Of a stretch of DNA of 64,000 nt, positions 7,748 through 57,500 are shown in pieces. Position numbers and translations under genes: made by a program. A model generated the notes under the pieces. The model was not told the origin of the DNA. It saw only the letters and a program-made list of their open reading frames with translations, and did not search any database. Source of the stretch: a virus; IMG/VR virus record IMGVR_UViG_3300045988_137804, positions 1-64,000 of that record. One strand, written 5' to 3'. Position 1 is the stretch's first letter. Each line of letters opens with the position of its first letter.

Positions 7748-7755
7748 TAATTATT

Positions 7756-10210: not shown

Positions 10211-10367
10211 TTAGCCATATGAGACACTTATTCCCTGAGCAAGAATGATGAAGTCGGTACAAAAGTGCTCAATTTCTGTATTTTACATTCGTGTGTTATG
10301 CAAGCAGCACGAATGACATATGGCATTAACCCCCAACATAGGGTATTTACATTTTACAAAAATGGTT

Positions 10368-10437: not shown

Positions 10438-10505
10438 CTTGACGCAGAAAACATTTGATTTTTGCATTCATGTTTTGCACGCCTCATTTCTTCAATGTGC
10501 AAAGT

Positions 10506-35300: not shown

Positions 35301-35730
35301 TCACGTTCCTGTGTTTGAAAGAATTACAGCATTTGACAAATTTAAAATTGAATCAAAATTCCAAAACCTTAGTCCAGGAGGCGCAATTTCGTATTGTGAA
35401 ATCCCATCAATTAACGTAAATATTCCAGCATTATTGGAAGTAATTAAATTTATTTATGACAATATTATGTACGCAGAAATCAATACAAAAGATTGTTATT
35501 GCGAAGTGTGTGGATACGATGGAGACATTCCACTTATTGACGATGATAACGGTAAACTTGTATGGGAATGCCCTAATTGTGGCAACACAGATAATACAAA
35601 AATGGACATCGCATTTAGAGTTTGTGGTTATGTTGGTACTGCAAAAAATGGTGGAAACCAAGGAAGATATGGAGATATCCACGATAGAGTTTACCACATC
35701 GATGACTTTGAATACGAGGAAAATGAATAA
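32386..35730 (+). CDS. nrdD: anaerobic ribonucleoside-triphosphate reductase (class III), interrupted by an intein
   Basis: ATP-cone start VIKRDCSEVDFDKNKI, conserved MGC|RSFL site split by the intein, C-terminal zinc site CxxC...CPNC and glycyl-radical motif RVCGYVG. Confidence 0.9.
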   Translation: MVRVIKRDCSEVDFDKNKISTAILKAMKNGSGIVKPKIAESIADEIEKECKDREEIDISEIEAMVFDKLITKKQRLTARAYEGYRSTREFQRENENTVDEEILGIVEANNEEWKDENANKNPALNPTIRDYIAGSVSKDATKRFLLSPEIIQSHLEGIIHFHDSDYFIQHMHNCGLVNLEDMLQNGTVISETMIEKPHSFSTACTVTTQIIAQVASSQYGGQSISLAHLAPFVDVSREKIRKEVISEQELVGMEYPEDVLNEIVERRLKKEITKGVQTIQYQLITLMTTNGQAPFITIFMYLNEAKNEREKKDLAMLIEEMLLQRKLGVKNEDGVYIAPAFPKLIYVLEDDNCNESTEYWYLTELAAECTSKRLVPDYISEKVMKELKGDVYTCMGCVDGKELVTYTYNNNLYVESFERMWNRLSDRFEIKHQYNDNNPNLYMDLSDVEIYDTDKGFVNTERIIRNISTSWLDVNFSNGRRLLCTEDHPLTLRDGRTIHASELKLKDRILINSHQYNEENIVFNEDKAWLLGFMLCDGCYQGSLFSSIAAENEDEIADKFSETMKKYFDLDIEKKLQQRGKKGTYYDLIAHSQNEKISVYCNYFAKKFEGLNKIDRHVPNEVFSWNYSSKLAFLAGMIDADGYINSSQNKGFSIVQIGSTNKELALQQMALAQSLGMPAKLYHNHYSKRNPELIRYRVEFYPTDELINYIVCKKKYDNYIDSNVSSYNHESEVTEINKINKKMFSYDVTTTSEHFEISGIYSHNCRSFLTVDRFSDKVGNISNAKNFNGKHKYYGRFNQGVVTINLPDIAFSSDGDMDKFWGIFEERTELCHKALKARHNRLLKTSSDIAPILWQNGAYARLKKHEPIDKLLFDGYSTISLGYAGLYECVKYMTGKSHTDGDVGEKFGLEVMQALNDKCNQWKEAENIDYSLYGSPIESTTYKFAKCLKNRFGDDIFIKLDGFDRNYITNSYHVPVFERITAFDKFKIESKFQNLSPGGAISYCEIPSINVNIPALLEVIKFIYDNIMYAEINTKDCYCEVCGYDGDIPLIDDDNGKLVWECPNCGNTDNTKMDIAFRVCGYVGTAKNGGNQGRYGDIHDRVYHIDDFEYEENE
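33574..34677 (+). mobile_element. 368-aa intein with a LAGLIDADG homing endonuclease inside nrdD
   Basis: Starts at Cys (CVDGKELVT) right after YTCMG. Block B TEDHP. Two LAGLIDADG motifs (LLGFMLCDGC, LAGMIDADGYI). Ends ...IYSHN followed by the +1 Cys of CRSFL. Confidence 0.85.
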
Positions 35731-39518: not shown

Positions 39519-39863
39519 ATGCAGAAAAAGAATTACAAAGGTCGCTGCGAGAAATTAACAGTGCCAAAATCTAAGGATGTCTGCCATATCTATAATGACA
39601 TCCAAAAGTCTTATCTATTACAACTTCAGGACGATCCAAACATCAAAGAGATAAAATGTAATGTCCTTATGCTTGGATTGGAACTTGGAGAATTCACATC
39701 TGATTTTCAGTGTGTTACAGCAGACAACAATCTAATAGTGCGTGAATGTATCTCACGAGATGCTATCGCCAAACCAATGACAGCAAAACGATTAGATGCT
39801 TCAAGAGAGTATTGGTTTCGTCATGGCATAACAGATTGGGGGATTGTAACCGATGAAAAATAA
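39519..39863 (+). CDS. tnsA: short TnsA-like protein (endonuclease N-terminal-domain-like, 114 aa)
   Basis: AAAGGAG RBS. LQDDPNIKEI...GEFTSDFQCV...LIVRECIS...REYWFRHGITDWGIVTDE resembles the TnsA core (..YTPDF.V....EVK....E.yW...g..w.ivte). The expected E and K positions do not look conserved. Confidence 0.45.
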   Translation: MQKKNYKGRCEKLTVPKSKDVCHIYNDIQKSYLLQLQDDPNIKEIKCNVLMLGLELGEFTSDFQCVTADNNLIVRECISRDAIAKPMTAKRLDASREYWFRHGITDWGIVTDEK

Positions 39864-41661
39864 GAGTCTATTTTATAATCCAAAAACCAAAGAAATATTT
39901 CGTGTGTTAGACAGTAAAGGTTCAAAAGTTCTTATCATTAATTGCACAAAGAAACAGATGCCTTATTGGACAGAATTCGATTCAATTTCTTCCTGTCGTT
40001 TAATCACAGAAGATGAATTACAGGACATGACTGGCACACATTTTCAAGAACTAACTGTACCATCAAAAGAATACAGATATGTTCAAGAAAGGTTTTCACT
40101 GATTTCAAATATCATTCCTATCATCGGAAATAAAAGCAAGCGTACTCAGATGATACGAATCATATCTGAAACAAATAATTGCAGTAAACAAACAATCAAA
40201 AACATCTTGTGCCAGTATCTCATCTATCAAAATATTTCTGCATTAGCACCGCAAAAGAGCAATGAAAAAGAACTAACAACAGATGAGAAAAACATGCGTT
40301 GGGCATTAAATAAGTTCTTCTATACAAAGAATAAGAATTCATTATCAACCGCTTACGTCATGATGCTTAAAGAAAAATATACAGATGAATACAACAACTT
40401 ATTACCACACCCAACCATTCATCAGTTCCGTTATTTCTATCGCAAAACAAAAAAGATGGAAACGTATTATATCTCAAGAGATGGCATAAAAGATTACCAA
40501 AGAAATCACAGACCATTGCTAGGAGAAGGAATTAGAACAGTTGCAAATAGCATTGGAACAGCTATGTTGGATTATACAATCTGTGATATTTATCTCGTAA
40601 ACGATAAACAAGAATTAATTGGTCGTCCATTAATGACAGCTTGCATTGATGTCTACAGCGGATTGTGTTGTGGTTACTCATTAACATGGGAAGGTGGAAT
40701 GTACAGTTTGCGTTCTTTGATGTTAAATGTGGTCACTAATAAGAAAGAACATTGTAGAAAGTTTGGAATAAATATCGAAGAATCCGACTGGAATTGTCAT
40801 CAATTACCTGCAACATTAATCACAGATAAAGGTTCAGAATATGCGTCAGAAAACTTTGAACAACTTACAGATTTAGGAGTGTCTATTATAAATCTACCAG
40901 CCTATAGACCAGAGTTAAAAGGATCAGTTGAAAAGTTTTTTGATATGATTCAATCACTTTATAAGCCACAGTTACTAGGAAAAGGTGTCATAGAATCTGA
41001 TTTCCAGGAACGTGGCTCACATGATTATAGAAGAGATGCTTGTCTAACATTAGAACAATTTGAAAAAATAATTCTTCGTTGCATCATCTATTATAATACA
41101 CAGAGAATTATCAAAAATTCACCACTGATTGAACAAAATATTCCGCCACATTCTTGTGACATATGGAACTATTATTTGACCTATAATGATGACTTTTTGA
41201 TAAGAATATCGCCACAGAATCTACTTTTATGTTTGCTACCAAGAACGAAAGGAGTGTTTAAAAGAAATGGTTTAAACGTCAATAGTCTCCGCTATAAGCA
41301 TAAAACATACACCGAAATGTATCTTGTAGGAGGAGATGTAACAGTAGCCTACAATCCAGAAGATGTTTCTTACATTTGGCTCATTGAAGAAAATGGAACG
41401 TATGTAAAATTTGAATTAATCAATTCTCAGTTCTATGGAAAGGATTTATCATTTGTAGAAAAATATATGGAGTCATCTAAGAAGCTAATTGCAGAAAATA
41501 CCGATGATAATTTACGAGCAAAAGTTACGCTTTCAAAAGATATAGATTTTGTAATTTCTGAAAGTGTACGTTCTAATGTAAGCACAAAAAATATCCGCAA
41601 GAATCGTCAGAAAGAACAGGAACTTACTCATAGAGATTTCGTAAAGGAGTATGAATTATGA
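39853..41661 (+). CDS. tnsB: TnsB/MuA-family DDE transposase
   Basis: DDE candidates in MLDYTICDIYLV, LITDKGSEYAS and RPELKGSVEKFF. 602 aa. Overlaps tnsA-like by 11 nt. Confidence 0.8.
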   Translation: MKNKSLFYNPKTKEIFRVLDSKGSKVLIINCTKKQMPYWTEFDSISSCRLITEDELQDMTGTHFQELTVPSKEYRYVQERFSLISNIIPIIGNKSKRTQMIRIISETNNCSKQTIKNILCQYLIYQNISALAPQKSNEKELTTDEKNMRWALNKFFYTKNKNSLSTAYVMMLKEKYTDEYNNLLPHPTIHQFRYFYRKTKKMETYYISRDGIKDYQRNHRPLLGEGIRTVANSIGTAMLDYTICDIYLVNDKQELIGRPLMTACIDVYSGLCCGYSLTWEGGMYSLRSLMLNVVTNKKEHCRKFGINIEESDWNCHQLPATLITDKGSEYASENFEQLTDLGVSIINLPAYRPELKGSVEKFFDMIQSLYKPQLLGKGVIESDFQERGSHDYRRDACLTLEQFEKIILRCIIYYNTQRIIKNSPLIEQNIPPHSCDIWNYYLTYNDDFLIRISPQNLLLCLLPRTKGVFKRNGLNVNSLRYKHKTYTEMYLVGGDVTVAYNPEDVSYIWLIEENGTYVKFELINSQFYGKDLSFVEKYMESSKKLIAENTDDNLRAKVTLSKDIDFVISESVRSNVSTKNIRKNRQKEQELTHRDFVKEYEL

Positions 41662-42917
41662 TTAATATGAATAAAGTAATCAAAGAACTTCCTGATATGC
41701 TGTCCGGAAATGAACTTCAGAAAGCAATGTCTATTATTCCAAAATACGACAAACAGATTCAGGAAGATGGAAGTATGACCGAAAGACTTTTGAAATTATC
41801 TGACCTTTATAGCATTTATATTCCATCACAAATGTCTACTGAAATTTATAGCAAACTATATCTTGGAATCATTCGTTCTATGCAGAAAAAAGGAAACAAG
41901 TTAACTGTACAACAATTCAATTCAACTTATAGAACGATGCAGAATATTAAGAATAAAACTGGCAATCAGCAATATGATGGAATCATAGGTGGATCAGATT
42001 CATTTACAATTATTGGTGCAAGTGGGATAGGAAAATCATCAGCTATTTCTCGTGCATTGAATCTGATTGAAGCAAATCATGTAATAGAAATTGAACAGCC
42101 TTACACTAAAATACTTCCATGCTTAACAGTGCAATGTCCATTCGATTCTTCTGTAAAAGGATTATTACTTGAAATTCTTCGCAAAGTTGATGAGCAGTTA
42201 GGAACAGATTATGCACAAACAAAAAGGTTCACGACTGATATGCTTATAGGTGCTGTTAGTCAGGTGTGTTTAAATCATATTGGCTTGCTTGTTGTAGACG
42301 AAATACAGAACGTAGTTAATTCAAAGAACGGCAAGAACTTAATCGGATCATTGACGCAGCTAATCAACAATTCAGGCATTAGCATCTGCATGGTTGGAAC
42401 ACCAGATAGTGAAATATTCTTTGAACAGGCTATGCAATTAGCTCGTAGAAGTGTCGGATTAAAATACACAGCTTTGCCATACGATGAACATTTTTGCGAA
42501 GTATGTGAATGCTTATTTTCTTACCAATATGTAAAAAATATCACATATATAAATAGCACGACTATAGAATGGTTGTATCAACACAGTGCAGGAGTTATCT
42601 CTATTGTTGTATCATTAATTCATGATGCACAAGAGATTGCAATCTTAAATGGGAGAGAAGTATTAGATATTAAATCGTTAGACGAAGCATACAACAATAG
42701 ACTTTCTATGTTGCACGATTATATTAGACCTACTATGAGAAAGAAATCTATCGGCAATAATAAAATAAAGAAACAAAATATCATTACAACTTTGTCGATA
42801 AAAAATAGCGCAGATATTCAAACAGATTTAATACAAAGTCTTGCGAAAGAATGTAAGAAAGATGGAACAGATATTGTAGAAATACTGAGTCAACATATTA
42901 CAATTGAGGTGATTTAA
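41658..42917 (+). CDS. tnsC: TnsC/TniB-type AAA+ transposition ATPase
   Basis: Walker A IIGASGIGKSSAI, Walker B LLVVDEIQN. ATGA overlap with tnsB. Confidence 0.8.
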   Translation: MINMNKVIKELPDMLSGNELQKAMSIIPKYDKQIQEDGSMTERLLKLSDLYSIYIPSQMSTEIYSKLYLGIIRSMQKKGNKLTVQQFNSTYRTMQNIKNKTGNQQYDGIIGGSDSFTIIGASGIGKSSAISRALNLIEANHVIEIEQPYTKILPCLTVQCPFDSSVKGLLLEILRKVDEQLGTDYAQTKRFTTDMLIGAVSQVCLNHIGLLVVDEIQNVVNSKNGKNLIGSLTQLINNSGISICMVGTPDSEIFFEQAMQLARRSVGLKYTALPYDEHFCEVCECLFSYQYVKNITYINSTTIEWLYQHSAGVISIVVSLIHDAQEIAILNGREVLDIKSLDEAYNNRLSMLHDYIRPTMRKKSIGNNKIKKQNIITTLSIKNSADIQTDLIQSLAKECKKDGTDIVEILSQHITIEVI

Positions 42918-44318
42918 ATGATTGGATTTATGCCTAAATTATATCCAGATGAATTAGTGTATAGTTGGATTGCTAGGTATCATGTAAGAACTGGACATTA
43001 TAGTTATCAGCAAACAGCAAAACATCTACTAGATAAGAAAGCAAATATTGTCTCGAAAAAGTTTTTAAACGAATACTCAAATGAATTTTTTAACATCATC
43101 AAAAAGAATATTCCAATAAAAGAGTTAGTAATAAATCATAGTATGCTGTCAGCTTATATTAAATTTTTGCCAAAAGATAAGCGCAATAATCTAATAGAAT
43201 CCTATGAAAACAATTTAAGATATAAAGAGTCATCAATTGGATTTAAGACAAGAAGTAATGGTATTAGTATGCGATATTGTCCTATATGTGTAAAGGAAGA
43301 TCGAGAAAAATATGGAGAAACTTACTGGCACAGAGAACATCAATTTGTTGGAATTAATGTATGCACAAAGCATAAATGTTATCTTATAGATTCCAAAATG
43401 TCTGTAAAAAGTATTGATAAGTCTGAGTTTTATACCGCAGAATATGTCATAGAACAACATGATGATGTTAAGATTTCCAATAATGAGTATGAGATAAAGT
43501 TTGCCAAGTATTTTACAGAAGTCATAAATACAGAGTCAAATAATGACTCAAATATTGTGGAATATCTCAATACTATATTATTGAACTCAAAGTATAGAGC
43601 AAATGGATGTATGCTAAAAGATTTTAATAAATTGTACGATGATTATTCTGAATTATGCGAAAAGATTAATGTAAATATAATTTCTTCACAACCATCGTTA
43701 AGAGAGATATTAAAAAATAAACGCAGAACATTGGATATTTGTATCCTTGGAATGCTATTGAATATTTCGCCTTACGATCTCGTGAATAGAGTATTGCCAA
43801 ATACAAACAAAGAGGATATCAGAGAGCAAGTCATATTTTTAAGAGATGTAAAAAAGATGAGTTATAATCGTATTGCAAAAGAATTAAACGCAAGTAGAAG
43901 AGCAGTTGGTACAATATATCATAGTAAAAAAACTGAAAATGATTTAGATGTTCTTAAACTTCTTAAAGATGAACTGCCAAAATTCTATAATGGAGATTTA
44001 ACTAATGGAAGACCGCAAAAAATAACAGTATACACAGTTGAAAAACAATTTGATATTCCACAAAAAGTATTAATAAATAATAAATCCTATTATAACGAAA
44101 TAATCAAGTATGAAGAGTCTTATCCTGAATATTGGGCGAGAGAATTAGTATGGTCTTATAATAAACTAAAGGAAGATAAAGCATATATAAGTCAAAATAA
44201 AATAACCAAACAAATAAATATTCGTAAGGAGCAACCTGTAAAAGCTATACCATACATCTCTAAATATACAGACAAAGAAACTGCTGAAGCTATTAAATCA
44301 TTATTGCAAAAATCGTAA
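42918..44318 (+). CDS. tniQ: TniQ/TnsD-family target-selection protein with C-terminal HTH
   Basis: N-terminal LYPDELVYSWIARYHVRTGH, zinc module RYCPICVKED...HREHQFVGINVCTKHKCYL, and a later HTH-like MSYNRIAKELNASRRAVGTIY. Starts immediately after the tnsC stop. Confidence 0.8.
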   Translation: MIGFMPKLYPDELVYSWIARYHVRTGHYSYQQTAKHLLDKKANIVSKKFLNEYSNEFFNIIKKNIPIKELVINHSMLSAYIKFLPKDKRNNLIESYENNLRYKESSIGFKTRSNGISMRYCPICVKEDREKYGETYWHREHQFVGINVCTKHKCYLIDSKMSVKSIDKSEFYTAEYVIEQHDDVKISNNEYEIKFAKYFTEVINTESNNDSNIVEYLNTILLNSKYRANGCMLKDFNKLYDDYSELCEKINVNIISSQPSLREILKNKRRTLDICILGMLLNISPYDLVNRVLPNTNKEDIREQVIFLRDVKKMSYNRIAKELNASRRAVGTIYHSKKTENDLDVLKLLKDELPKFYNGDLTNGRPQKITVYTVEKQFDIPQKVLINNKSYYNEIIKYEESYPEYWARELVWSYNKLKEDKAYISQNKITKQINIRKEQPVKAIPYISKYTDKETAEAIKSLLQKS

Positions 44319-44378: not shown

Positions 44379-45524
44379 TTATTTTAAAGCACCGCTTGAA
44401 TTAAAGCTATATTCTTTTCCACCTATTTTAATTATTTCATTACAAGCCATTGATCCATCATCTTTAAGATAATATTTTGTGCCTTTATCTGTAACCCAAT
44501 GATTTCTCATCATTGCTCCGACTGGGATACAATCCTTATCTTTATTATACCAATACCATTTATTATTTTTTTTTAACCAACCAGTTACCATTGAACATCC
44601 TGGAAATCCAGAGACTTCTCCACTTGATACAAAATAATAATCATTTGTCCCATCATTATATTCGCCTAAAACTGCTGAACCAGTTTGATGATTTTTACCT
44701 CCACTTGTTCTCAATAGATACCAAAAACCATCAATTTTTCTCCAACCCGTAACCATCGCACCGATTGCATAATATGGCGTATTAGATTCACTTAAATAAT
44801 ACCAGTCGCCATTATCACAAAGCCAACCAGTTTTCATACTGCAATCATCATTAAAATAATACCAATGTCCATTTATTGATTCCCATTTATTATTTATAGC
44901 ATAACCATTTTTGTCAAAGTAGTACCAAACGTTATCTAGACATTTCCACTGTTCCTTTGGGTATGATTCGTCATCATTTCTATACCACCAGCCAATATTG
45001 TCTTTTTTCCAACCAACAGATATTTTATTAGTAATATCTTTCTTGAACTGATTCCAAATAGAAGAGTCACAACCGTTTGCACCCCAACCTGTCCAACCTG
45101 GACAAGACTTAGAGCATACATCCCAATGACGAACAACATGAGCTGCATCGATGTTATATTTCTTCATAAGTGTTTTAGTAAGTTCAACTGTATTTCTATA
45201 TGTTCCATCAGAAATCTTTCCGTCTGTAGAACACATTTCGATGCTAATTGAATTACTATTCGTACATTTTCCAAATAAGTTATTTGAACCGTAATTTCTT
45301 CCAACAGCCCAAGCCGTGTCACTATCGGAAACTACCTGTACTACGTTCTCTGTATCAACGAAATAATGAGCAGATGCACCACGGTTAGTACTTTTAAAGT
45401 AGTTGCCGTTGTTCACAGATTTGTCCCACCAATTTCCTGTGTAGTGAATTACAATATACTTTCTTCCGTTATTACCTTTTGTGTAATTAACTTTAGTAAG
45501 GTTTTGAATAAGTTTGTAAGCCAT
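44379..45524 (-). CDS. endolysin: N-acetylmuramoyl-L-alanine amidase (Amidase_2/PGRP-like) plus cell-wall-binding repeats
   Basis: IVIHYTGN...ASAHYFVD...AWAVG...SISIEMC amidase core. The C-terminal half holds about 6 GW..(x)..WYYF/WYYL repeats. Confidence 0.85.
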   Translation of the reverse strand: MAYKLIQNLTKVNYTKGNNGRKYIVIHYTGNWWDKSVNNGNYFKSTNRGASAHYFVDTENVVQVVSDSDTAWAVGRNYGSNNLFGKCTNSNSISIEMCSTDGKISDGTYRNTVELTKTLMKKYNIDAAHVVRHWDVCSKSCPGWTGWGANGCDSSIWNQFKKDITNKISVGWKKDNIGWWYRNDDESYPKEQWKCLDNVWYYFDKNGYAINNKWESINGHWYYFNDDCSMKTGWLCDNGDWYYLSESNTPYYAIGAMVTGWRKIDGFWYLLRTSGGKNHQTGSAVLGEYNDGTNDYYFVSSGEVSGFPGCSMVTGWLKKNNKWYWYNKDKDCIPVGAMMRNHWVTDKGTKYYLKDDGSMACNEIIKIGGKEYSFNSSGALK

Positions 45525-46899: not shown

Positions 46900-48618
46900 T
46901 TATCCTATTGTTACAGTAGTACCAGAGCTATTTGACTCTTCCTTATACGGAATCGCACTTACTGATACGTTATCTTTCATGACCTTACCGCTTGTACTAA
47001 GTGACTGTGTGGTAGCTGACGGAGTTACACTATATGAGCCTGAATAAGTCTCTGGAAGTTTAGCGATAATTGCTTTAAGAATTGAAGTCACATCTGAGCC
47101 ATAAGATGAGAGAGAAGATAAGTCTCCCAGTTTTGTATTGATTTCTGATTCTGTGTAATAACGATCATCGTGCGTATGACTTGAAGCTGCTTTTCCATTA
47201 AGAGCGGTAGTAATTGTACTCTGTGTCATAGTACCATCTGTTGCAGTACCCGTACCTGTATAAAGTTTTGTAAGACCTGCTGTTGATGTTGTTCCTGTAC
47301 TGTAAGTAGTATTTGTAGGAACTACCCATGTACCATCTCCACGTAAAAATGATGCTTGTTTTCCAGCCGCAGGAGCCGGAACTAAACCTGCTTTTCCAGC
47401 AGCACTTGCTGTAGCGGCAGTCATATTGCTATAAGTTGTATTATTATCCGGTGGAACAGTCCAAGTTCCATCCTCTCTAAGATATTTTGTAGTACCTGCT
47501 GTTGTAGATGGAGCAGGTACAAGACCAGCCTTTGCTCCAGAACCAGACTTAACAAAATTTGAATATGTTGTGTTGTTATCTGCTCCCCAAACAGCAGTAC
47601 CATCCGCTGACCATCTAAGAATTTGCCCAGAAGACCCTCCGGATGGAATATGTTTATTTCCAGATGTTGTTGGGTGAGTATATACTGTATCTGTGAATTT
47701 TGCCCCGGATGGAACATCTGCATTAACTGTATGATTATTTACTTTTGATGCATTTGTTGCAGTTGAAGCATTTCCACTTAAAGCACCTTTAAAGGTTGTT
47801 GCTCTGATTGTTCCAGAAGACGGCTGAACAGACAATCCAGCACTTGAGAAAACTTGATCCGTAACAGTTGTTGGCGAGAATCCTTCTGTAGCACTATTTG
47901 AAGCACCCCAAACCAATGATCTCCAGTTTGTATAATCTGAATCTTTTACAGCTGCCTGTGTTACCTTTGTGTCCGTATTCGTATCACTTCCAGGAATACC
48001 TAATCCTGTAATATCTGCCTTTGTAACAGCAGTAGCAGCACTAACATGTCCTGTTGCATCAACTGTAACTTTGTAAAGTCCAGAAGATTTTGCTGTGTAA
48101 CTTGGATGGGTATAAACTGTATTATTATCAGTTAATTCGATAGTTGTGTTCCCAGATTGGTTCATAGTAAAAGTCCCTTTACTAGTGCCATTTTGTTTGA
48201 CAGTCACTGTACCATTACCAACTGACGGTATTGTAGCAGAACTATAAGCAAGAGAACCAAGTCCAAGCCATGATTTCAATGCGTCTTTACTGACATCCTT
48301 GATTTTTGCAATATTTGAACCACCGTCTCCGCCTGTATATCCTGCAATGAATTTAATGTTATCTCCTGTAATTCCACTTCCGCTATAACCAATCTTAATA
48401 TTTTTTGATGTATTTCCATAATCGACTACAGTAGTAGCCGAATCCGCACTTGTTGCTTTAGTCGCAGTATCTGCATTTCCCTGTAATTTTCCAATAAATG
48501 TTGGAGCTGTAACTGAGTCGCTTACATATAATTTTGACAAAAGCCTCGAAACTCCCGTTACGATTAGATTGCTTAACTGAGCCAAGTTAACTCCTCCTTT
48601 CGTATATTTAAAAATCAA
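46900..48618 (-). CDS. tail fibre protein
   Basis: Shares modules with 54527-57607 (VYTHPSYTAKSSGLYKVTVDATGHVS; GLTKLYTGTGTATDGTMTQ; SSHTHDDRYYTESEINTKL). His-x-His fibre-type motifs. Confidence 0.65.
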   Translation of the reverse strand: MIFKYTKGGVNLAQLSNLIVTGVSRLLSKLYVSDSVTAPTFIGKLQGNADTATKATSADSATTVVDYGNTSKNIKIGYSGSGITGDNIKFIAGYTGGDGGSNIAKIKDVSKDALKSWLGLGSLAYSSATIPSVGNGTVTVKQNGTSKGTFTMNQSGNTTIELTDNNTVYTHPSYTAKSSGLYKVTVDATGHVSAATAVTKADITGLGIPGSDTNTDTKVTQAAVKDSDYTNWRSLVWGASNSATEGFSPTTVTDQVFSSAGLSVQPSSGTIRATTFKGALSGNASTATNASKVNNHTVNADVPSGAKFTDTVYTHPTTSGNKHIPSGGSSGQILRWSADGTAVWGADNNTTYSNFVKSGSGAKAGLVPAPSTTAGTTKYLREDGTWTVPPDNNTTYSNMTAATASAAGKAGLVPAPAAGKQASFLRGDGTWVVPTNTTYSTGTTSTAGLTKLYTGTGTATDGTMTQSTITTALNGKAASSHTHDDRYYTESEINTKLGDLSSLSSYGSDVTSILKAIIAKLPETYSGSYSVTPSATTQSLSTSGKVMKDNVSVSAIPYKEESNSSGTTVTIG

Positions 48619-49295
48619 TATTCGATAAAGTCATCGAACTCTATTTTGTTTTCGTATATCTTGTTTGAATTTGGGATAGAATAAATCCCGTGAATTTGAT
48701 CATTATAAGACGGTCTATAAATTTCTGTTCCTTCATGGATTCTAAGACCTGTAAATAAAATGTATCCTTGTGTAAACGTATTTTCCAAATTTGGGTTTGG
48801 GTAAAACATAATATAAATCTTTCCATCATCTGCATTTGATCTAAATTTTGCCCAAACCAATATCACTTTTCCTTTTGTAGTGTCTACAATACTCCACGAG
48901 TTACCGTTTGTATTATATTTTTCTGTATACGAACAACCATGTTCTAAATGTAATCGAAAATCCGCATCACAATCCTCAGAAACATAAGCGTACATGCTTA
49001 CTGTGAAATCTCCATTTTTTATTCTTTCTTTTTGCCAATCGAGAATATAAGAGTAAACCATGAATCGTTTTGTATTATTCCAATATTTTCGTTTCTCCTC
49101 TGATACGGGATTAATTTTTTTACAAGTATCAAATCCATAAGGAAGAAAAATATCCGTCTTATAGTTAGATTCACAGGTACAATTACTATTTGCTATATTT
49201 TGTTTTCCTAAATATAAATTTTGCGGGGGGGGGGTAACAGAATAGTTTACATCAATTATCCCATTTTCATTAAGTTGCGTCATTCTATCCTCCAA
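48615..49295 (-). CDS. hypothetical fibre-locus protein carrying a C10 tract at codons 21-24
   Basis: 226-aa ORF overlapping the next gene's start by 4 nt. C-terminus ...FDDFIEY like its neighbours. Confidence 0.55.
   Translation of the reverse strand: MEDRMTQLNENGIIDVNYSVTPPPQNLYLGKQNIANSNCTCESNYKTDIFLPYGFDTCKKINPVSEEKRKYWNNTKRFMVYSYILDWQKERIKNGDFTVSMYAYVSEDCDADFRLHLEHGCSYTEKYNTNGNSWSIVDTTKGKVILVWAKFRSNADDGKIYIMFYPNPNLENTFTQGYILFTGLRIHEGTEIYRPSYNDQIHGIYSIPNSNKIYENKIEFDDFIEY
49225..49234. repeat. G10/C10 homopolymer inside the 5' end of the 48615-49295 gene
   Basis: gcGGGGGGGGGGta counted directly. Encodes TPPPQ on the coding strand. Confidence 0.95.
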
Positions 49296-49313: not shown

Positions 49314-49709
49314 CTAAAATTCAATGAAATCTGCCGATGAAATTCCACTTTCATTAAAAGTACATTTTGATGTTATTTCTGTGTCTATGCGGTAATATAA
49401 GTCGTAATAACCATCTATAACCACTTCTCCAAGTGTAGATGGAATACCACCATTAAATTTATTCCAACAACCGATAGCTCCCCACCAGTTACTGCTATAT
49501 GTATTGTTCATACAGAGATAAGTATTACCTTTCTTTAGATAAACTCCACCGTAACTACTTGAAGTCCAATATTCATCACCTGTATAGACCTCAACATCAT
49601 CGTGACCCACATCTGCGAAAGCAGCAGTCATCGGATTTACATTTTGAATAAACCTATATTTAAAATCTGGATTACTTTCTGTTATTTTTGAATTGTCATA
49701 AGTTCCCAT
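49314..49709 (-). CDS. hypothetical fibre-locus protein
   Basis: 131-aa ORF. C-terminus ...SSADFIEF. Confidence 0.5.
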   Translation of the reverse strand: MGTYDNSKITESNPDFKYRFIQNVNPMTAAFADVGHDDVEVYTGDEYWTSSSYGGVYLKKGNTYLCMNNTYSSNWWGAIGCWNKFNGGIPSTLGEVVIDGYYDLYYRIDTEITSKCTFNESGISSADFIEF

Positions 49710-49960
49710 TTGCCTGACGTGTTGTAATTACATAATGAAACATTAAACCATGCATTTTCGTTCTTGTATACATGTGTTGCAAATGAGTCAGATTCTGAGA
49801 ATAAGTTAAAAGAACCGTCAGATAAGACGGGAGTATGATGAAAGACTCTTACCCATACTGATCCATCTGATTCAGTATAAAAGTTTGAGTCATACATATT
49901 AATAATAGGAGAGGTAGCAAATGCAGTTGCAAGGATGTTTCCATTTTTACAAATATTCAT
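49682..49960 (-). CDS. hypothetical fibre-locus protein (N-terminal KNGN motif)
   Basis: Starts MNICKNGNI. Overlaps the downstream ORF by 28 nt. Confidence 0.45.
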   Translation of the reverse strand: MNICKNGNILATAFATSPIINMYDSNFYTESDGSVWVRVFHHTPVLSDGSFNLFSESDSFATHVYKNENAWFNVSLCNYNTSGKWELMTIQK

Positions 49961-49962
49961 AA

Positions 49963-50523
49963 TTACACCTCCTCAATCTGTATTGCTACGATTTTATCTG
50001 AAGCAATTGAACCAGATTTAGTAGAGTTGTCAATAGCATATTCTGCTGGCATAACCTTGATATTTGAGAATGTAATTCTTCCTATACCATTCGAATAGTC
50101 ACTACGAACTCCTAAGTATTGTCGTGTCCATTTGTCGTCTTTATTATTAAAGAATCCAGATACAAATTTTGATCCAGATTTTGCACTAAGAACCAAATCT
50201 TTGTTTAATACTTTATTTACAACAGTACACATCGAGTTTCCACTAGACCAATAATATGTATTATCATTTTTGTTAAACGTTGATCCTTGCGCCCATATAT
50301 CAAAATTATCTGCAACATTTTCTTGAAATCCGTCCCAAGAAATAAGAAGCTCAATGTAATACCTTTTAGTTCCTTCAAATCCAGCAATTGATTCTCCAGT
50401 TAATGTTGAGTTATTAGTATCTTTCCTTGGAACATATGTAACACTTTTGACATTATTCATCAACACTCCACCATGCTCATACATTTCAGTTCCAGTTACA
50501 TTACCATTCTTATATATACTCAT
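49963..50523 (-). CDS. hypothetical fibre-locus protein (N-terminal KNGN motif)
   Basis: Starts MSIYKNGNV. 186 aa. Confidence 0.5.
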   Translation of the reverse strand: MSIYKNGNVTGTEMYEHGGVLMNNVKSVTYVPRKDTNNSTLTGESIAGFEGTKRYYIELLISWDGFQENVADNFDIWAQGSTFNKNDNTYYWSSGNSMCTVVNKVLNKDLVLSAKSGSKFVSGFFNNKDDKWTRQYLGVRSDYSNGIGRITFSNIKVMPAEYAIDNSTKSGSIASDKIVAIQIEEV

Positions 50524-50524
50524 A

Positions 50525-50770
50525 TTAAACCACCGCCTTCCGGTAATTTAGATTTCCATAACTTCTCTTGTTGGTCTGTTTTGTCATATAATAATATATT
50601 TTTCCTGGCGTTATATGGCAATACTGATTTGTTATTGTATATATATCATTACTTATTCCGGAAAGAACATATGGATTTTCTTTTGTATATTTCTCAGAAT
50701 TTACTAATATATTCATCGCATCTGATTCATATATATTTTCTTTTTTAATATTTCCATTTTTATTTATCAC
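50525..50770 (-). CDS. hypothetical fibre-locus protein (N-terminal KNGN motif)
   Basis: Starts MINKNGNI. 81 aa. 4-nt overlap with the upstream LamG gene. Confidence 0.45.
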   Translation of the reverse strand: MINKNGNIKKENIYESDAMNILVNSEKYTKENPYVLSGISNDIYTITNQYCHITPGKIYYYMTKQTNKRSYGNLNYRKAVV

Positions 50771-52575
50771 TGCTCAATAAATTCTCCTTGTGTCATTAGA
50801 GTACCTGTATTAGTAATAGATACAGGTGTCTTATATAAGTTCATAACATCTTCAGCAGAGAGTGCTGTGGCGTAGATACGAAAGTCAGAAAGATAACCGT
50901 TAGTCCAATTACCTTTTGGGATTCCATTATCAGAATTTTCCGATCCTCCAATTGTCCCTTTTGTGCCAACTCCTTGTAATGTCCCAACTTCATCTTTTGT
51001 CGAAACTAAATTTCCATCTACGTATAATTTTTTGGCTGTGTTACTTCTTGTTACACAAATATGATGCCAACAATTTGTGGTCACAAGATAATCAAATTCT
51101 GTATGTACTTCATCATCAAGTCTTATTACACCTCCAAGAAAGAATACGGCTACTCCAACACCAACGGCTGTTCTTGCAGTATATATAGTGTGCACAGTAT
51201 TTTTTGTAAAATAAGCCCAACAAGCAATAGAAAAATCTGTAGCTGTAGAATTGATTGGATTTTGGACTCCGATATAATTTGAACTACCATTAAATTTATA
51301 ACAACAATTATATCTAGGTGAATCATTATAGATGGTAGGAGCAGAAGAGGAAGTAATCCATCCGTGATGACCAAAGCCAGAAGTATCATAGATTGTGTTA
51401 TCATACATTTCTGGAGTATCTTTTAGAGATGTCATATAAGGAGTGGGAGATGAACCAAGTTCCACTTTTGCATTCTTTACATAAAGATCAGCATTATATC
51501 CGCCTCCGACACAAAAGTAATCAGAATCTTTGCCAGTATACAAATCTCTTAATGTCACGGTTACAGAATATCTTGTCCATTCATCACTTTTAACATCATC
51601 CATTAAATCTCCAAACTCGCGTCTGTTCCAGAAATCAATAGAAGAAGTTGTTGTACTCCAATACTGAATATAAGGACTTCCGCTATCTATAGTTCCTTTT
51701 ACATCAACTGAAAAGGTTACAACATCTCCTGTTTTTAATCCGGAATTCTTACGTTCAAAATTTATACAAATCCCATTTGAATTAAAAATGCCAGTATTTC
51801 CAGTTTTAAAATGCCAACCTTCCGATGTTACTTCGTTGATGATGATATTATTTATTACACCATCACCCCAGTTTCTCCCATTCCAATCAATTAACCCTGA
51901 AGAATCTAATAAGTTTCTTCCAATGATATTTCCATCAATCATACTCATCGGATAATGGCACATTAACCCTTGAGATAAAAGACGAACTTCTTTAGGAGAT
52001 ATGGCATTATTGTAAATACGATAATCATTAAACATATGATATTCTGAATTGTAAATCATCTGTGTGTCATAAGCAAATGTAGAAGAGTTACTAACTTTTC
52101 CGCCTTCAGACCATTTTAGTTGTCCATTAATATAGATATTAATAGTAGGATTTTTATATACAACTGCAACATGTGTCCATTGATAGGATGGAAGTACACC
52201 TTTTATAAAATTTCCACAAAATATTGTATTTTCAGCATCATTCATCCAACTCCAATGAAAGTCATTACATGTAGGATATTGAAATAATGAAAACTTTCTA
52301 CTATTGTTTGCTGTCATATTATCGTTTCCAAATATCCTTGTGCGATTTGTAGTACTTCCTTCTTCCGCATTTACATATATCCAGAAAGCAATAGTAAGTT
52401 CATCATTATTTAGAACCTTTTCTGTACCTTCAGCCGGAATCAAAACTCCGCCTTTATTTAAACACTTTCCAAGTTTTCCGTCTTTGTAAGTTGCTCCTGT
52501 AACTTGTAAATCTACGTCCAGTAATCCCTGATTATTAGTATGTCCGTTCAGTGGCAGGTGTATCATCAAACTCAT
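50767..52575 (-). CDS. double LamG/concanavalin-like lectin-domain protein (putative receptor-binding protein), paralog A
   Basis: Two LamG-type units (ELTIAFWIYV...WTHVAVVY...IYINGQL...DYRIYNNAISPKEV and FSIACWAYF...WHHICVTRS...LYVDGNLV...DFRIYATALSAEDV). C-terminus NTGTLMTQGEFIEQ. Confidence 0.65.
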   Translation of the reverse strand: MSLMIHLPLNGHTNNQGLLDVDLQVTGATYKDGKLGKCLNKGGVLIPAEGTEKVLNNDELTIAFWIYVNAEEGSTTNRTRIFGNDNMTANNSRKFSLFQYPTCNDFHWSWMNDAENTIFCGNFIKGVLPSYQWTHVAVVYKNPTINIYINGQLKWSEGGKVSNSSTFAYDTQMIYNSEYHMFNDYRIYNNAISPKEVRLLSQGLMCHYPMSMIDGNIIGRNLLDSSGLIDWNGRNWGDGVINNIIINEVTSEGWHFKTGNTGIFNSNGICINFERKNSGLKTGDVVTFSVDVKGTIDSGSPYIQYWSTTTSSIDFWNRREFGDLMDDVKSDEWTRYSVTVTLRDLYTGKDSDYFCVGGGYNADLYVKNAKVELGSSPTPYMTSLKDTPEMYDNTIYDTSGFGHHGWITSSSAPTIYNDSPRYNCCYKFNGSSNYIGVQNPINSTATDFSIACWAYFTKNTVHTIYTARTAVGVGVAVFFLGGVIRLDDEVHTEFDYLVTTNCWHHICVTRSNTAKKLYVDGNLVSTKDEVGTLQGVGTKGTIGGSENSDNGIPKGNWTNGYLSDFRIYATALSAEDVMNLYKTPVSITNTGTLMTQGEFIEQ

Positions 52576-52612
52576 ACAACTACCTCCAGAATATTCAGAC
52601 AGTTTCTATCTA

Positions 52613-52629
52613 TTTTTTTTTTTTTTTTT
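52613..52629. repeat. T17 (A17 on the coding strand) homopolymer between the two LamG paralogs
   Basis: 17 consecutive T counted (52613-52629). Lies 37 nt upstream of the ATG of the 50767-52575 gene. Confidence 0.95.
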
Positions 52630-52659
52630 GAATAATTTCTTCGCATCTCGTTCATTTTC

Positions 52660-54513
52660 CTACATCTCCTTAAATTCACCCTGAGTCATTAATGTTCCAG
52701 TATTCGTAAGTGACACTGGCGTATTGTATAATTCTTTTATATCTTGATCCGATAGAGCAGTAGCATACATTCTGAAATCTGATATAGAATAATCAGAAGT
52801 GGAAGAGCTGTCCTCACTATAACAATTACCAATACGATGTAATGCATGTGCTGATGCATACTCGGTATCTATATTGCTGTGTGTAACAGTTTTTCTCAAC
52901 ACGCCATTTAAATAATATTTGGCTGTATGTGTTTCTAAATCCCATGTGATTGTGAACATATTCCATACATTTAAATTAACATCAAACGTACATGTATTAC
53001 TGCAACAATCCATTGTAATAGCTTGTGCCCCTGTAGAACCAATTATAATAAAATCATATTTGTTTCCTGTCCAGTTATAACCATTTGCAAAAAATAGATA
53101 AGTTCTCCATGTATTGCTAGTTGAATGTCTATTAATCCAGAGATTTGCTGTTCCCTGAGACATATTTTCAAATGAAAAATTCGGTGTAATTATTCCTGTT
53201 TGCGCACCATTTAATAGTTTGCATGAACCATCATATCTTGGAGCATCGTTGTTATATGAAATATAATCTTTATTATACATTGTTCCATGATTCCCATAAC
53301 CACTTGTATCATAAACAATTCCATCATTCCAAGCACCATTACTTATAGGAGTATCAACATCACATTCTGATACTTGCACATCTTTAAGGTCAAAATCAAA
53401 TGAAAAAGTTGCGTCTTTAGTAGCCATAGCACTTGTATAAAATTCTAAGATTGGGTTAGTTTTATAAGTTGTTCCAGATCTATCTGATGTTTCTTCAAGT
53501 TGGATAATTAAATGATGTTCTCGCCATTTACCATCAGCCAAACTTGACGAGCAGACTGTTGAATTTTTAGGTCTAGCCCAGTCATTATCCATTCTACTTG
53601 CTCTTAATTCAAAAGATACATTAGAAGTACATGTATTGCATCTAGTCTTACAACTATAATCATATTTCTTTCCTGCCGTGAAATTAAATACTGGAAAGCT
53701 AATTGACTTCCAACTATTTGTTCCAGTACCTGTATATGTATATTTATAATTATATCCACGTTCATCTGTTAGCTTTGTACATGTTATATCATTTACACCA
53801 CCATTGGCTCTTCCTTCAAAGAAATCTCCGGAATATTTATTAATAGAAGCAGTAGGATACGGATCGTTTAAAGGATAGTGACAGATCATACCTTTTGCTA
53901 ATTCTTTAATTTCGCGTGGTGATAGGGCGTTGTCGTAGATGCGGATGTCTGACATATAAGATTGATACATCATATCGCCTTTAATTCTAGAGCCAATTGT
54001 AATTGATTTGTTTGAACCCCAAATATCAGACAAGTTATTAACCTTTGTTTTTTCTACTATTAAAGAACCATTAACATAAAATTTTCTACTTGTTCCATCA
54101 ATTATAAATGCAATATGATGCCATTTGTCATTTGACAAATTAAAAAGACATGTATTTCCACCAATTAAACCTTTTGAGTCTGAAAACCAATAGTAACCAG
54201 TCGTCGTATTTACTTCTAACCGATTATCATATTCGCCTATTGCAAATATATCTGACCATGCTCTAGGTGTCTTTGGTTTTACCCATAATGCAATAGTCAA
54301 TTCTTCTGAGTCATATTCCCACGGGACTCTTAAACAATAATCTCCCATAGATATACTCTTACCAAATTTATCATCTATATACGAAGGACTTGATGATGCT
54401 GTAATATTCATCGTACCAAGTCCATGATTTTCTAAGTTGTTCTGTGTGTTTAACCACACTTGTAAAGCCAATAAAGACCACTCCCTTTCTTTGAAAAAAG
54501 GAGCAGAATTCAT
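52660..54513 (-). CDS. double LamG/concanavalin-like lectin-domain protein, paralog B
   Basis: Same architecture and C-terminus (NTGTLMTQGEFKEM) as paralog A. Start moved to the ATG at 54513 (AAGGAG upstream), which avoids the overlap with the preceding fibre gene. Confidence 0.65.
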   Translation of the reverse strand: MNSAPFFKEREWSLLALQVWLNTQNNLENHGLGTMNITASSSPSYIDDKFGKSISMGDYCLRVPWEYDSEELTIALWVKPKTPRAWSDIFAIGEYDNRLEVNTTTGYYWFSDSKGLIGGNTCLFNLSNDKWHHIAFIIDGTSRKFYVNGSLIVEKTKVNNLSDIWGSNKSITIGSRIKGDMMYQSYMSDIRIYDNALSPREIKELAKGMICHYPLNDPYPTASINKYSGDFFEGRANGGVNDITCTKLTDERGYNYKYTYTGTGTNSWKSISFPVFNFTAGKKYDYSCKTRCNTCTSNVSFELRASRMDNDWARPKNSTVCSSSLADGKWREHHLIIQLEETSDRSGTTYKTNPILEFYTSAMATKDATFSFDFDLKDVQVSECDVDTPISNGAWNDGIVYDTSGYGNHGTMYNKDYISYNNDAPRYDGSCKLLNGAQTGIITPNFSFENMSQGTANLWINRHSTSNTWRTYLFFANGYNWTGNKYDFIIIGSTGAQAITMDCCSNTCTFDVNLNVWNMFTITWDLETHTAKYYLNGVLRKTVTHSNIDTEYASAHALHRIGNCYSEDSSSTSDYSISDFRMYATALSDQDIKELYNTPVSLTNTGTLMTQGEFKEM

Positions 54514-54526
54514 CCGCTCCTTAATA

Positions 54527-57500
54527 TTAATTAAATGTAAAGTCAATACACTTATTTGTGCTGTTGTATGTAATAGTCGCTCCGCCACCAAGCTGGAATG
54601 ATGTGGCACTTGTTTCTAGTTTACCTGATGCAGAAGAACCAATATTACATAAATTTGTTCCATCTGATTTAACAAAAGTTGCTTTAGGTGATCCATTAAG
54701 ACCTTTAATTCCAAGTGAACCAGTTTTATCATGGTCGCCAATGGCAACATCGTCACCAAGCGTATTCCATGTATTATTTGCAAGGTTTAATGCGCCCGTC
54801 ATGGTTCCTCCAGAGAGTTTTAAATATGTTGAATCATGATTGTGTGTAGCCGGAGTAAATGTACTTGGTTTTCCAGATACATTAGCCCATGTAACTGAGT
54901 TAGCTACTTTTGCTACATCCGCAGTTCCAGCTGTGTTTGCTTTACCAGAATAAATACCGTTGGTATCAATGTATGTATGTGTTGCACCTGCAATACCATT
55001 ATTGCAATTAGTGTAAAAGTCAATATTGCCATCATTTGTAAGGAATAATTTTTCATCTCCGCCATTACTAAGCAATGATTTAGCTGCATCTGCGGATTCT
55101 CCACCACCAACGATAGTTGCTCCACCTCCGCCAATTACAACACCATTACCATATACATCTGAGGTATTGTCGATAAATTTAATCATCTCATAAGTAGATT
55201 TTGAACCTTTGTAGCTAATATTCCCTGTCATCACACCACCAGTTAGCTTCAAATAACTACTATCATGATTATGACTACTTGGTGGGTAAGTAGCAGGTTT
55301 ACCAGTAATTCCACTCCAAGGTGCAGAAGTAGCACTACCAGCGGTATAAACTGTATATCCATCTTCAGAAGATAACTTCGTATCATCTATAACGAAATAC
55401 ATCTTTCCTGTGCCTGTAACTTTTACAGTATCACCTTTCTGGATACTTGCTGTAGTTAATTTAAAACGATCCGTATCGTCAGCTACAATAACACAGCGTT
55501 CTAATGCACCTTGAGGAAGACGAGCAATATCAATTGTTCCTGTAGTGATTTTACTTGCATCTACAGATGTAATAGTAGAATTATCATGATTATGAGTTGA
55601 TGGAGTATAAGTAGATGGTTTATTTTTTACATTATTCCATTCTACAGATTGTGCAGAAGCTGCGGTTGTCGCAGATGTTGCGCTTTTAACTGAAGCATTT
55701 GCAATATCTGTAATCTGAGAAATTGTATGATTGTGAGAAGTGTTTGCCTTACCACTAAGTTTTGAATCTACTTCAGATTCAGTGTAATATCTATCATCAT
55801 GGGTGTGAGAAGATGGTGTGAATGTGGAAGGTTTGCCTGTGACATTTCCCCAAGCTACAGCACCAGCAGAATTTGCGTAGTTTACAGAACCTCCGTCGGA
55901 CGAAGTAACTGTTGCTGTTGGAGTGGCGGATTCTGGTGTGTCATTACTTTTTATTTCCATGTTCCAATTGTTAGAAGTGTTAGTTGACTCTAAAACACGG
56001 ACTTTCATTCTGCCATATTGATTTTGATGGTTATAAATATAAAGAGTCCACGTATTTCCATTTGTGTTGATGATTGCATCACCAGGCAAGAAAGCTGTGC
56101 CTGTTCTTGATTCCCATTTTAATTCTCTTACATATATAGTGGTAGAATTATCACATCTTATATGCAAATCTAAAATAGCAGAACCGATATTACCATATCC
56201 ATATGTAAAGAGTAATCTCGCAACATGATTTGAGTATCCGGTTAATGTCGTACTATAAACTTTATACCAACCTGCTGTATTAGCCTTATCTGAACCAATA
56301 TAAGCTACGCTACCTATTTTGTCTAGTGAGACATGTGTATGCCCCGTATCTGATTTCCCATCCAAAACACTCTTAATAGCAGCTTGTGTCATTGTTCCGT
56401 CAGTAGCTGTTCCGGTTCCAGTATATAACTTAGTCAATCCGGAAGTAGAAGCAGTACCCGTAGAATATGTTGTATTTGTACTTGGGATTCCAAGAGCTGT
56501 GATATCAGATTTTGCTACCGCAGTTGTTCCAGAAACATGACCTGTAGAATCTACAGTTACTTTGTATAATCCATTTGTTTTAGCAGTATAAGAAGGATGC
56601 GTGTAGACGGTATCGGTGAGTTTTTCTTCTGTCCAGTTTCCCCATGTGCCATCTTGACAAAATCTTCTATACGATTTGTTTATTGTTGTAGAGCCAGTTG
56701 TAAATAGAATTTGGGTATAATATGTTCCATTTGCTGTATGCGATACAATTAATCCAAAATTGTCAACTCCAGATGGTTTATTTGAAACGGTATTTCCACC
56801 ACCAGCGTTATAAAAACCAGGAGTAGTAACACTATTTAAATTTTGATTTGTAAGTGTCATCATTGCGGCTTTATTTTCATTTAACCACTTACCCTGTGCT
56901 GCACTCAAACTTTTATCTGTCGCTGTAGAAGTAAGATTATCTATAACATCACGCCATGTATTTGTATTATTATCTGTAAGTTCAATAGTGGTTGCACCAG
57001 ACTGATTAGTTGTAAATGATCCTTTTACAGCTCCAGCCTGCTTTATTGTAATTGTTCCATTACCTACACTTGGAATAGTAGGCTTATTAGAAAGATCATT
57101 ATAAGAACCACTGATAGCAACCTTATGTAATTTACTTTTAATGTATTCAAATAATGCTTTCAATGGTCTACGATGATAAGTAGTTGTTGTAGTTCCTCCA
57201 CCTGCGTATTGAGACACGTAATAGTCATCATCATTCGGTGTGGCAGTTCCGGTTGTTAACGTATTAATCATCGTAGATAAATCATGTGTATGATTTGTAT
57301 TTGATTTTCCAGCCAAAGCAGAATTTACAACTTTATTTTGCACTGGATTTGTAGAAGTAGAACTCAACGCAGAGTCTACAGTTGTTTTATTGGCTCCAGA
57401 TGCGATGCCATCAAGTTTGGAACGGTCGTCTGGAGATAAGGATTCGTAAAGTGGAAGTTCTGACCATTTCTTAGAACCATCTCCAATTTTAAAATTGCCA

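Follow-up and report, generated by a model that had tools for sequence, protein, structure and literature searches.

A length-variable poly-A tract between two LamG tail genes of a large gut phage: a candidate contingency tract with a proposed leader reading frame relay

What could a run of 17 adenines do between the genes for two putative receptor-binding proteins of a phage? The question is raised by a stretch of 64,000 nucleotides (nt) from IMG/VR virus record IMGVR_UViG_3300045988_137804 (positions 1 to 64,000), which is referred to here as the window and provides all coordinates not otherwise attributed. Two tandem genes, each encoding a protein with two Laminin_G_3 (LamG) domains and designated paralog B and paralog A in the order in which they are read, are located on the minus (coding) strand and are separated by a spacer that contains the run (A17). 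Comparison of assemblies makes true hypermutability and polymorphism of the tract very probable. Whether it affects the expression of paralog A at all appears evenly poised. With slightly less than even confidence, we favor the reading that A17 is a slippage-prone tract of the contingency type in the leader of paralog A, and propose that it may act through the frame of a short open reading frame (ORF) within this leader. The elements on which the argument depends are the following:

52576 to 52659, minus strand: spacer of 84 nt, from the paralog B stop to the paralog A start (direct reading)
52613 to 52629, minus strand: poly-A tract, A17 in the window, very probably hypermutable (direct reading and run listing)
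52583 to 52587, minus strand: GGAGG ribosome-binding site of paralog A, 7 nt before its ATG at 52575 (direct reading)
50767 to 52575, minus strand: paralog A, 602 amino acids (aa), two Laminin_G_3 domains, putative tail-fiber/receptor-binding protein (domain matches and position among the tail-fiber genes)
52660 to 54513, minus strand: paralog B, two Laminin_G_3 domains (domain matches)

Read along the minus strand, the TAG stop codon of paralog B (52662-52660) is followed by 30 nt (52659-52630), the A17 tract (52629-52613), 25 nt, and the GGAGG motif. The original prediction, which had been made from the letters of the window, had placed an A17 run in the 84-nt spacer and called it the longest homopolymer of the window; the coordinates bear out both statements, whereas its count of 26 nt between tract and GGAGG was too high by one. 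On the plus strand, the tract is a T17, and the next-longest runs of the window are a G10 (49225-49234), a T9 (44566-44574), and one A8. Under a first-order Markov model, only ∼2 × 10−3 A or T runs of at least 17 nt would be expected in 64 kb.

Relatives and further assemblies of the locus were retrieved by exact-protein look-ups, which gave ∼12 independent assemblies from several studies. Among the source samples were ERZ1748977, ERZ1749067, SRR1761699, ERZ4567471, ERZ4567535, ERZ28614948, and ERZ28615715. The spacer tract in the individual sequences was as follows:

L001/L004, window-type (ERZ1748977): A18
L005, window-type (ERZ1749067): A18
The window, L003, and L008, window-type and 98% variant: A17
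L006, 98% variant: A16
L007 and L009, 98% variant: A15
L052 and L053, diverged relative: A15
L119, diverged relative: A18
L010 and L047, diverged relatives: A11
L054, relative with a hardly alignable spacer: G9

The length polymorphism that had been predicted for the tract thus exists, with A15 to A18 in otherwise identical spacers (outside the tract, the 84 nt are the same in all window-type and 98% variant assemblies) and A11, A15, and A18 in the relatives. Between the window and L001, there was not a single substitution in 7,809 nt, and the sole difference was one A (A17 versus A18). L007 and L008, likewise devoid of substitutions in 6,811 nt, differed only at the A tract (15 versus 17) and at a C tract (11 versus 10; see below), and L006 and L008 differed by one substitution and at both of these tracts. 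Because the flanks are identical while the tract differs, the tract mutates far faster than the sequence surrounding it. Such variation of repeat number between near-identical genomes is characteristic of simple-sequence-repeat (SSR) contingency loci, and so are two further properties of the tract, its unusual length for the genome (A17 compared with 9 for the next A/T run) and its association with surface or host interaction (it is located between two Laminin_G_3 proteins in a tail-fiber block).

Differences of this kind, or the run itself, might be produced by Illumina stutter or by the behavior of assemblers at a homopolymer. Contigs do end at the tract (Logan contig L003 begins with A17 plus 14 nt, that is, one 31-mer, and L005 stops 14 nt past A18), which would fit a branch of the assembly graph arising from mixed lengths, although read stutter could do likewise; one scaffold is chimeric at the tract, and the difference between A17 and A18 is within the consensus uncertainty typical for such a long run. 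However, the tract was found in no fewer than 12 independent assemblies, which stem from several studies, and its length differed by up to 3 nt within a lineage and by 7 nt between lineages. The same lengths also recurred in independent samples of a sub-lineage (both L007 and L009 carry A15 and C11; both L052 and L053 carry A15), and shorter tracts well inside the reliable range (C9–C11 and A5–A13) vary, too. An origin of the run or of its length differences as an artifact is, consequently, very improbable.

Is the tract more than a mutational curiosity? It may be hypermutable and yet neutral: the spacer would then be the vestige of a small gene formerly located after paralog B, and an A-rich junction with the leader of paralog A, expanded by slippage, would drift without effect. 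We regard this explanation as possible, if on the unlikely side. By eye, the 5′ half of the spacer does resemble the region after paralog A, where an 81-aa gene starts (GAAAAT..GAACGAGATGCGAAG compared with GAAAATATATATGAATCAGATGCGATG), but the similarity is weak, as 14 of 300 shuffles scored equally. Further evidence against mere drift comes from the rarity of long runs elsewhere. In 58 homologous LamG tail modules from IMG/VR, used as control (429 kb; phages of up to ∼180 kb, almost all with a single LamG gene), there were no A/T runs of at least 10 nt and no G/C runs of at least 8 nt, and in the window itself, runs of at least 9 nt were depleted (two compared with ∼7 expected under the first-order Markov model).

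Conservation of the tract and its surroundings points in the same direction. Every lineage found to have tandem LamG genes and a spacer keeps an uninterrupted homopolymer in that spacer (A11–A18 or G9). Across the poly-A lineages, the arrangement GAAATTATTC-An-TAGATAGAAACTRTCTGAATATTCWGGAGGTAGTTGTATG is retained with 3 variable columns in ∼73, whereas the flanking coding DNA varies at ∼23% (our count, alignment A2); a 12-nt patch upstream of GAAATTATTC is fully diverged between lineages. The spacer of L054 (71 nt) can hardly be aligned with the others, and its run is a G9, separated from the stop by 29 nt and from the ATG by 33 nt; folding of this spacer gave z = −1.58, and a structured RNA was rejected. 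In relatives with a single LamG gene, a terminator-like hairpin or an 18-nt gap is found in place of the tract-containing spacer, and in a distant relative (L107), two LamG-like ORFs overlap by 4 nt without any spacer.

The only feature of the spacer sequence for which dependence on tract length could be demonstrated is a short ORF that runs through the tract, preceded by a Shine-Dalgarno-like motif:

52572 to 52655, minus strand: predicted leader mini-ORF of 27 codons, MNEMRRNYSKKKKKIDRNCLNILEVVV followed by a stop codon (ORF reading)
52666 to 52671, minus strand: AAGGAG, Shine-Dalgarno-like motif in the last codons of paralog B, 10 nt upstream of the mini-ORF ATG (sequence)

The ATG of the mini-ORF (at 52655) is positioned 4 nt after the stop of paralog B. 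Only in the phase shared by A17 and A11 does its TGA overlap the ATG of paralog A (ATGA). With A15 and A18, the mini-ORF ends in ...KKKKKNR and a stop codon, with A16 in ...KKKKK and a stop codon; it stops early in these two phases because the sequence TAGATAG supplies stop codons in both frames. The AAGGAG motif is kept in all tandem lineages, including L054, which despite its different spacer has an analogous arrangement, namely AAGGAG, an ATG that follows the stop by 3 nt, and an ORF leading through G9 and ending 8 nt past the next start; when this tract was changed to G8 or G10, the ORF stopped directly after it. The three short tracts (A11 twice and G9), which are presumably more stable, are all in the phase that permits the relay. 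In composition-matched shuffles, an ORF of this type was obtained in 4.2% (window) and 2.4% (L054) of cases.

In the family of tail genes to which these LamG genes belong, a 4-nt overlap between the stop of a LamG gene and the gene that follows is normal, and translational coupling is therefore the family norm. Termination–reinitiation at ATGA overlaps is an established means of such coupling, and the mini-ORF, which in one phase ends in ATGA on the start of paralog A, would restore it across the 84-nt gap. Ribosomes finishing paralog B would restart at the ATG 4 nt downstream, aided by the AAGGAG 10 nt upstream of it, and translate the leader mini-ORF including the tract. In the phase of 11, 17, and so on, the mini-ORF would end at ATGA and hand the ribosomes over to the start of paralog A; in the other two phases, it would stop at TAGATAG, 25–37 nt short of this start. 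Tract length would, in this way, tune rather than strictly switch the amount of paralog A relative to that of paralog B, and a phage population would thereby have mixed tail-fiber compositions. We are aware of no description of a leader ORF whose frame is set by a hypermutable homopolymer so that coupling is gated, and what is put forward here is a model only. As a mechanism, the relay via the leader ORF is tentative and, taken by itself, rather doubtful.

Several observations weigh against a regulatory tract acting through this ORF. Paralog A has its own strong GGAGG, 7 nt from the ATG, with no significant RNA structure around it, and should therefore be translated without coupling. The peptide encoded by the mini-ORF is not conserved, its codons 3–6 being wholly different between lineages. 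All three length phases are present among natural genomes, and part of the A17/A18 difference (±1) could be Illumina or assembly stutter. A look-alike, seemingly conserved mini-ORF arose by chance in the chimeric, bacterial part of one scaffold (L002; see below), which shows that short open frames are easily found in A-rich DNA, and the shuffle test of the relay ORF was made post hoc. On long A runs, moreover, sliding of the ribosome and slippage of RNA polymerase would blur any effect of frame; ribosomes reportedly slide on poly-A, that is, on runs of AAA lysine codons (Koutmou et al, 2015, eLife), of which the tract encodes five or six. Finally, any influence of tract length on paralog A is something we infer. 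The independent ribosome-binding site, the occurrence of all phases in nature, and the absence of significant RNA structure, promoter, or Rfam match in scans of the spacer equally speak for neutral drift of the tract.

The scans in question gave the following results. The fold of the spacer RNA was without significance (z = 0.16), Rfam covariance models had no match at E ≤ 1 within 50000-55000, and the promoter/terminator scan called neither a sigma-70-like promoter nor a terminator in the spacer. One possible, not significant structure was seen directly 3′ of the tract:

52596 to 52612, minus strand: possible weak 7-bp hairpin, UAGAUAG-AAA-CUGUCUG (minimum-free-energy fold)

A single G-to-A change in L052 and L119 converts a G-U pair of this hairpin into A-U, the overall z remaining 0.16. 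An intrinsic terminator at the tract was considered and rejected, the run on the coding strand being A and not U; on the plus strand, all that comes before T17 is a stem containing two C-A mismatches, and no terminator was called there. Two sequences inspected as possible regulatory elements were uninformative: TAGATAGAAACTG, as a shared motif, occurred only once in the window, and the palindrome CTGAATATTCAG had just scattered copies with 1–2 mismatches in the window, mostly in coding DNA.

In bacteria, intergenic homopolymers are classical means of tuning expression. Examples are the vlp promoters of Mycoplasma hyorhinis with their poly-A spacer, for which A17 is the ON length, the poly-G/C tracts of Neisseria meningitidis porA and opc, and the poly-T "rheostat" of Helicobacter pylori sabA. 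With these, the present tract shares its intergenic position upstream of a surface or adhesion gene and its size (the runs are ∼9–20 nt), the length modulating expression in the bacterial systems. By analogy, paralog A might be driven by an internal promoter whose spacer or upstream element is the tract, or slippage of RNA polymerase on the run might alter transcript yield. The sequences TTATTC and TAGATA directly flank the tract, and A17 would give them a 17-bp spacing; lengths in the window lineage cluster at 15–18, and both flanks are conserved. In addition, a terminator-like hairpin precedes paralog B, and downstream genes may therefore need signals of their own:

54494 to 54520, minus strand: hairpin GGAGC-N11-GCTCC followed by T6, located between a 1026-aa fiber gene and paralog B and presumably terminator-like in function (sequence)

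However, the flanking hexamers match the consensus at only 2/6 and 3/6 positions and lack the T at the last position of the −10 element; the scan made no call, although this phage may use late promoters of another type (a late-promoter consensus could not be derived for it). The arrangement found in vlp, porA, and opc, with 16–18 bp between −35 and −10, is thus not seen here. More tellingly, A11 is present in two diverged lineages with identical flanks, where a spacing of 11 bp would be dead and paralog A is nevertheless intact and diversifying; in L054, the tract is a G9 with different flanks. The tract also differs from the bacterial examples in being located inside a phage operon, 38 nt from the start codon. 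Consequently, the earlier suggestion of variable promoter geometry is disfavored, and transcriptional control in general appears improbable. The untranslated-region geometry suggested alongside it may still apply, and the leader-ORF relay is an elaboration of this idea at the level of translation. Slippage of RNA polymerase is to be expected on a run of 17 A, but has no consequence for the frame of either paralog here.

The run might instead be a hotspot of recombination or a module joint, promoting exchange or loss of the paralog A cassette. It is located at the junction between the putative small-gene remnant and the leader of paralog A, and the locus is indeed mosaic. The C-terminal ∼60% of paralog A has been exchanged between lineages (matches are 78–81% identical over the first 35–40% only), and a close relative (L116-118, P0122 lineage; locus ∼6001-8076) lacks both paralog A and the tract. 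There, a single LamG gene that is B-like and has an A-type 3′ end is followed by the region that otherwise lies downstream of paralog A. It would appear that paralog A was either lost by recombination between gene ends or that the state before duplication has been preserved, the tract being involved in neither case. As far as these genomes go, paralog A is a presence/absence polymorphism. Any join in the genomes lacking it falls within the homologous ends of the genes rather than at the tract, and the domain swaps fall inside genes.

L002, alone in having another context upstream of the tract, had to be discarded. Its GC-rich upstream part, with the seemingly conserved mini-ORF, might have been a real alternative junction, but a degenerate-codon scan of GTDB genomes revealed that its positions 1-248 are 99.6% identical to an Oscillospiraceae metagenome-assembled genome (MAG), UMGS273 (L017, 6152-6399). 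This MAG has an A23 run of its own followed by TAGA, and L002 was joined inside poly-A. L002 is, hence, an assembly chimera, whose tract count and mini-ORF are uninformative, and with it the sole apparent sign of recombination at the tract falls away. The notion of a hotspot for recombination between the paralogs, which had been among the original suggestions, is left unsupported, and we consider it very improbable. L002 is public metagenome scaffold ERZ28619677 scaffold_1955.

A17 has one further consequence for frame, as in this phase paralogs B and A are in one frame with two TAG codons between them (frame 2 reads ...GEFKEM, stop, ENERDAKKLFKKKKKNR, stop, KLSEYSGGSCMSLMI), so that recoding of TAG would give a B–A fusion. 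Paralog B is also the only one among the larger ORFs of the minus-strand (late) block to end in TAG. Nevertheless, read-through is effectively refuted: TAG is used as terminator (it ends 5 of 39 ORFs, four of them on the plus strand) and other stop codons follow soon after; there is no suppressor tRNA in the window; the large ORFs of the late block are intact under the standard code and close together; and in L047, paralog B ends in TAA, with further in-frame stops behind it. The phage was, therefore, rejected as a TAG-recoded one, and the TAA of L047 also indicates that the stop of paralog B is genuine.

The case for a contingency-type tract in the leader of paralog A does not depend on the spacer alone. 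The three longest homopolymers of the window are all located within 44.5–52.6 kb, in the late block of tail and lysis genes, and two of them, A17 and the G10 (poly-C on the coding strand), vary between otherwise identical genomes. Sequence comparison identified two sister tracts:

49225 to 49234, minus strand: second hypervariable tract, poly-C (C10), in frame, codons 17–20 of a 222-aa gene (48615-49283) (sequence comparison)
49685 to 49689, minus strand: third variable tract, poly-A site (A5), at codon ∼92 of a ∼217-aa gene (sequence comparison)

For both, the reading frame changes with repeat number. The poly-C tract is C10, and the gene in frame, in the window, L001, and L008; it is frameshifted in six assemblies, by C9 in L002, L006, L010, and L119 and by C11 in L007 and L009, and in these the gene call is reduced from 222 to 148–170 aa. 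By this pattern, the tail-module gene is a classical phase-variable gene, with OFF being commoner than ON among the assemblies examined. At the second poly-A site, the A5 of the window splits the ∼217-aa gene into ORFs of 92 and 131 aa (49314-49960), whereas the gene is in frame with A13 in L047 (218 aa) and A10 in L116 (217 aa); A17 was found in L119 and A9 in L006-L010. A further run, C9, is present in L054 (6137-6145), near the 3′ end of a 182-aa gene following the second LamG gene.

Taken together with A17, the sister tracts raise the possibility of a multi-switch contingency system in the tail module of this gut-phage clade. It would be built on three independent homopolymers, two acting ON/OFF in frame and A17 acting via a leader-ORF relay that would be new to description, such that a population carries a heritable and reversible mixture of tail-fiber compositions. 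In this complete form, the idea is rather unlikely.

To our knowledge, experimental demonstrations of phage contingency loci are confined to phages of Campylobacter and, as a very recent addition, to T-even phages and a small number of other cultured ones, nearly all of these loci lying inside coding sequence. The polyG tracts of the former and the loci of T2/T4 are the closest precedents for the tract described here. In Fletchervirus phages of Campylobacter, hypermutable polyG tracts in the genes for receptor-binding proteins reportedly cause frameshifts inside the ORFs and, as a result, mixed tail-fiber phenotypes. The similarity lies in the presence of homopolymers in the host-recognition module of a phage and in the change of their length by slippage, and the sister tracts at 49225-49234 (poly-C) and 49685-49689 (poly-A) are of the same in-frame ON/OFF type. 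The A17 tract differs in that it is poly-A, intergenic, and unable to frameshift either paralog, and in that it belongs to an AT-rich, uncultured gut phage known from sequence alone. The Campylobacter tracts are the subject of Sorensen et al (2021, Cell Rep 35:109214), a study that PMC12823448 and PMC10877375 both cite. For T2/T4 and other phages, contingency loci based on simple-sequence repeats, polymerase slippage, and the resulting heterogeneity have been described in a preprint (Gomez, Barrick & Waters, 2025; PMC12633550); there, the repeats are mostly short runs (at least 6) inside ORFs that act by frameshift, few are intergenic, and they are under-represented in tail fibers. In the present window, by contrast, the longest runs are concentrated in the tail module, and the tract is far longer (15–18).

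What appears to be new is a candidate SSR contingency locus that is intergenic, resides in a phage, and is documented from natural populations. Natural metagenomes reveal an abundant clade of uncultured gut phages in which homopolymers of the late block vary, and the two sister tracts and the G9 counterpart lend the finding more weight than A17 would have by itself. If the length of the tract tunes the second receptor-binding paralog, these phages would hedge their host range by slippage, which would bear on host prediction and on the dynamics of phages and bacteria in the gut, and an intergenic variant acting at the level of translation would be added to the known mechanisms. In practical terms, the site is a hazard for assembly, where contigs break and chimerize.

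As for the proteins themselves, paralogs A and B are 26% identical from end to end and share the C-terminus TPVSxTNTGTLMTQGEF. They had been described as LamG receptor-binding paralogs; the LamG part holds, with two Laminin_G_3 domains in each, while a receptor-binding role is a reasonable deduction from their lectin fold and their location within the tail-fiber block. A phmmer search of PDB with paralog A gave generic ConA-like or LamG matches only and no phage receptor-binding protein. Paralog B comprises 617 aa when read from the ATG at 54513, the start chosen by the gene caller, and 603 aa when read from a TTG at 54471, preceded at a distance of 9 nt by an AGGGAG site. The TTG is probably the more likely start: the ATG falls into the loop of the terminator-like hairpin (54494-54520), in relatives, the start is a TTG after GGAGTG, and relatives with a single LamG gene have a similar hairpin and T run at the same place, followed by a TTG start.

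The window (33% GC) is part of a large AT-rich phage genome. Its plus-strand block encodes, among others, DNA polymerase, an exonuclease V/helicase, and NrdD, its minus-strand block the tail-fiber genes with an endolysin at the end. Neither megablast nor tblastn found close relatives among INPHARED phages, a single-protein scan of IMG/VR yielded nothing close, and exact-pattern scans with the tract flank (IMG/VR, JGI metagenomes, and GTDB genomes) returned nothing or one unrelated chance match (L120). Identical or near-identical genes are, however, present on metagenome contigs of 160–209 kb from human gut samples, and the source is taken to be an uncultured gut phage of roughly 160–205 kb.

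Three other loci of the window, all on the plus strand, deserve mention. Four tRNA genes are located at 9745-10438 (Met, Gln, Leu, and one to which ARAGORN assigns the two-base anticodon "gc"), none of the four being a suppressor. The anaerobic ribonucleotide reductase NrdD (32386-35730, 1114 aa) contains an intein with a LAGLIDADG homing endonuclease at approximately residues 436–764. Where the plus- and minus-strand gene blocks meet (39853-44318), there is a three-gene transposition module that resembles a Tn7/Tn5053-like element and whose products are a 602-aa protein bearing a Mu-transposase C-terminal domain, a 419-aa TniB-like AAA ATPase, and a TniQ of 466 aa.

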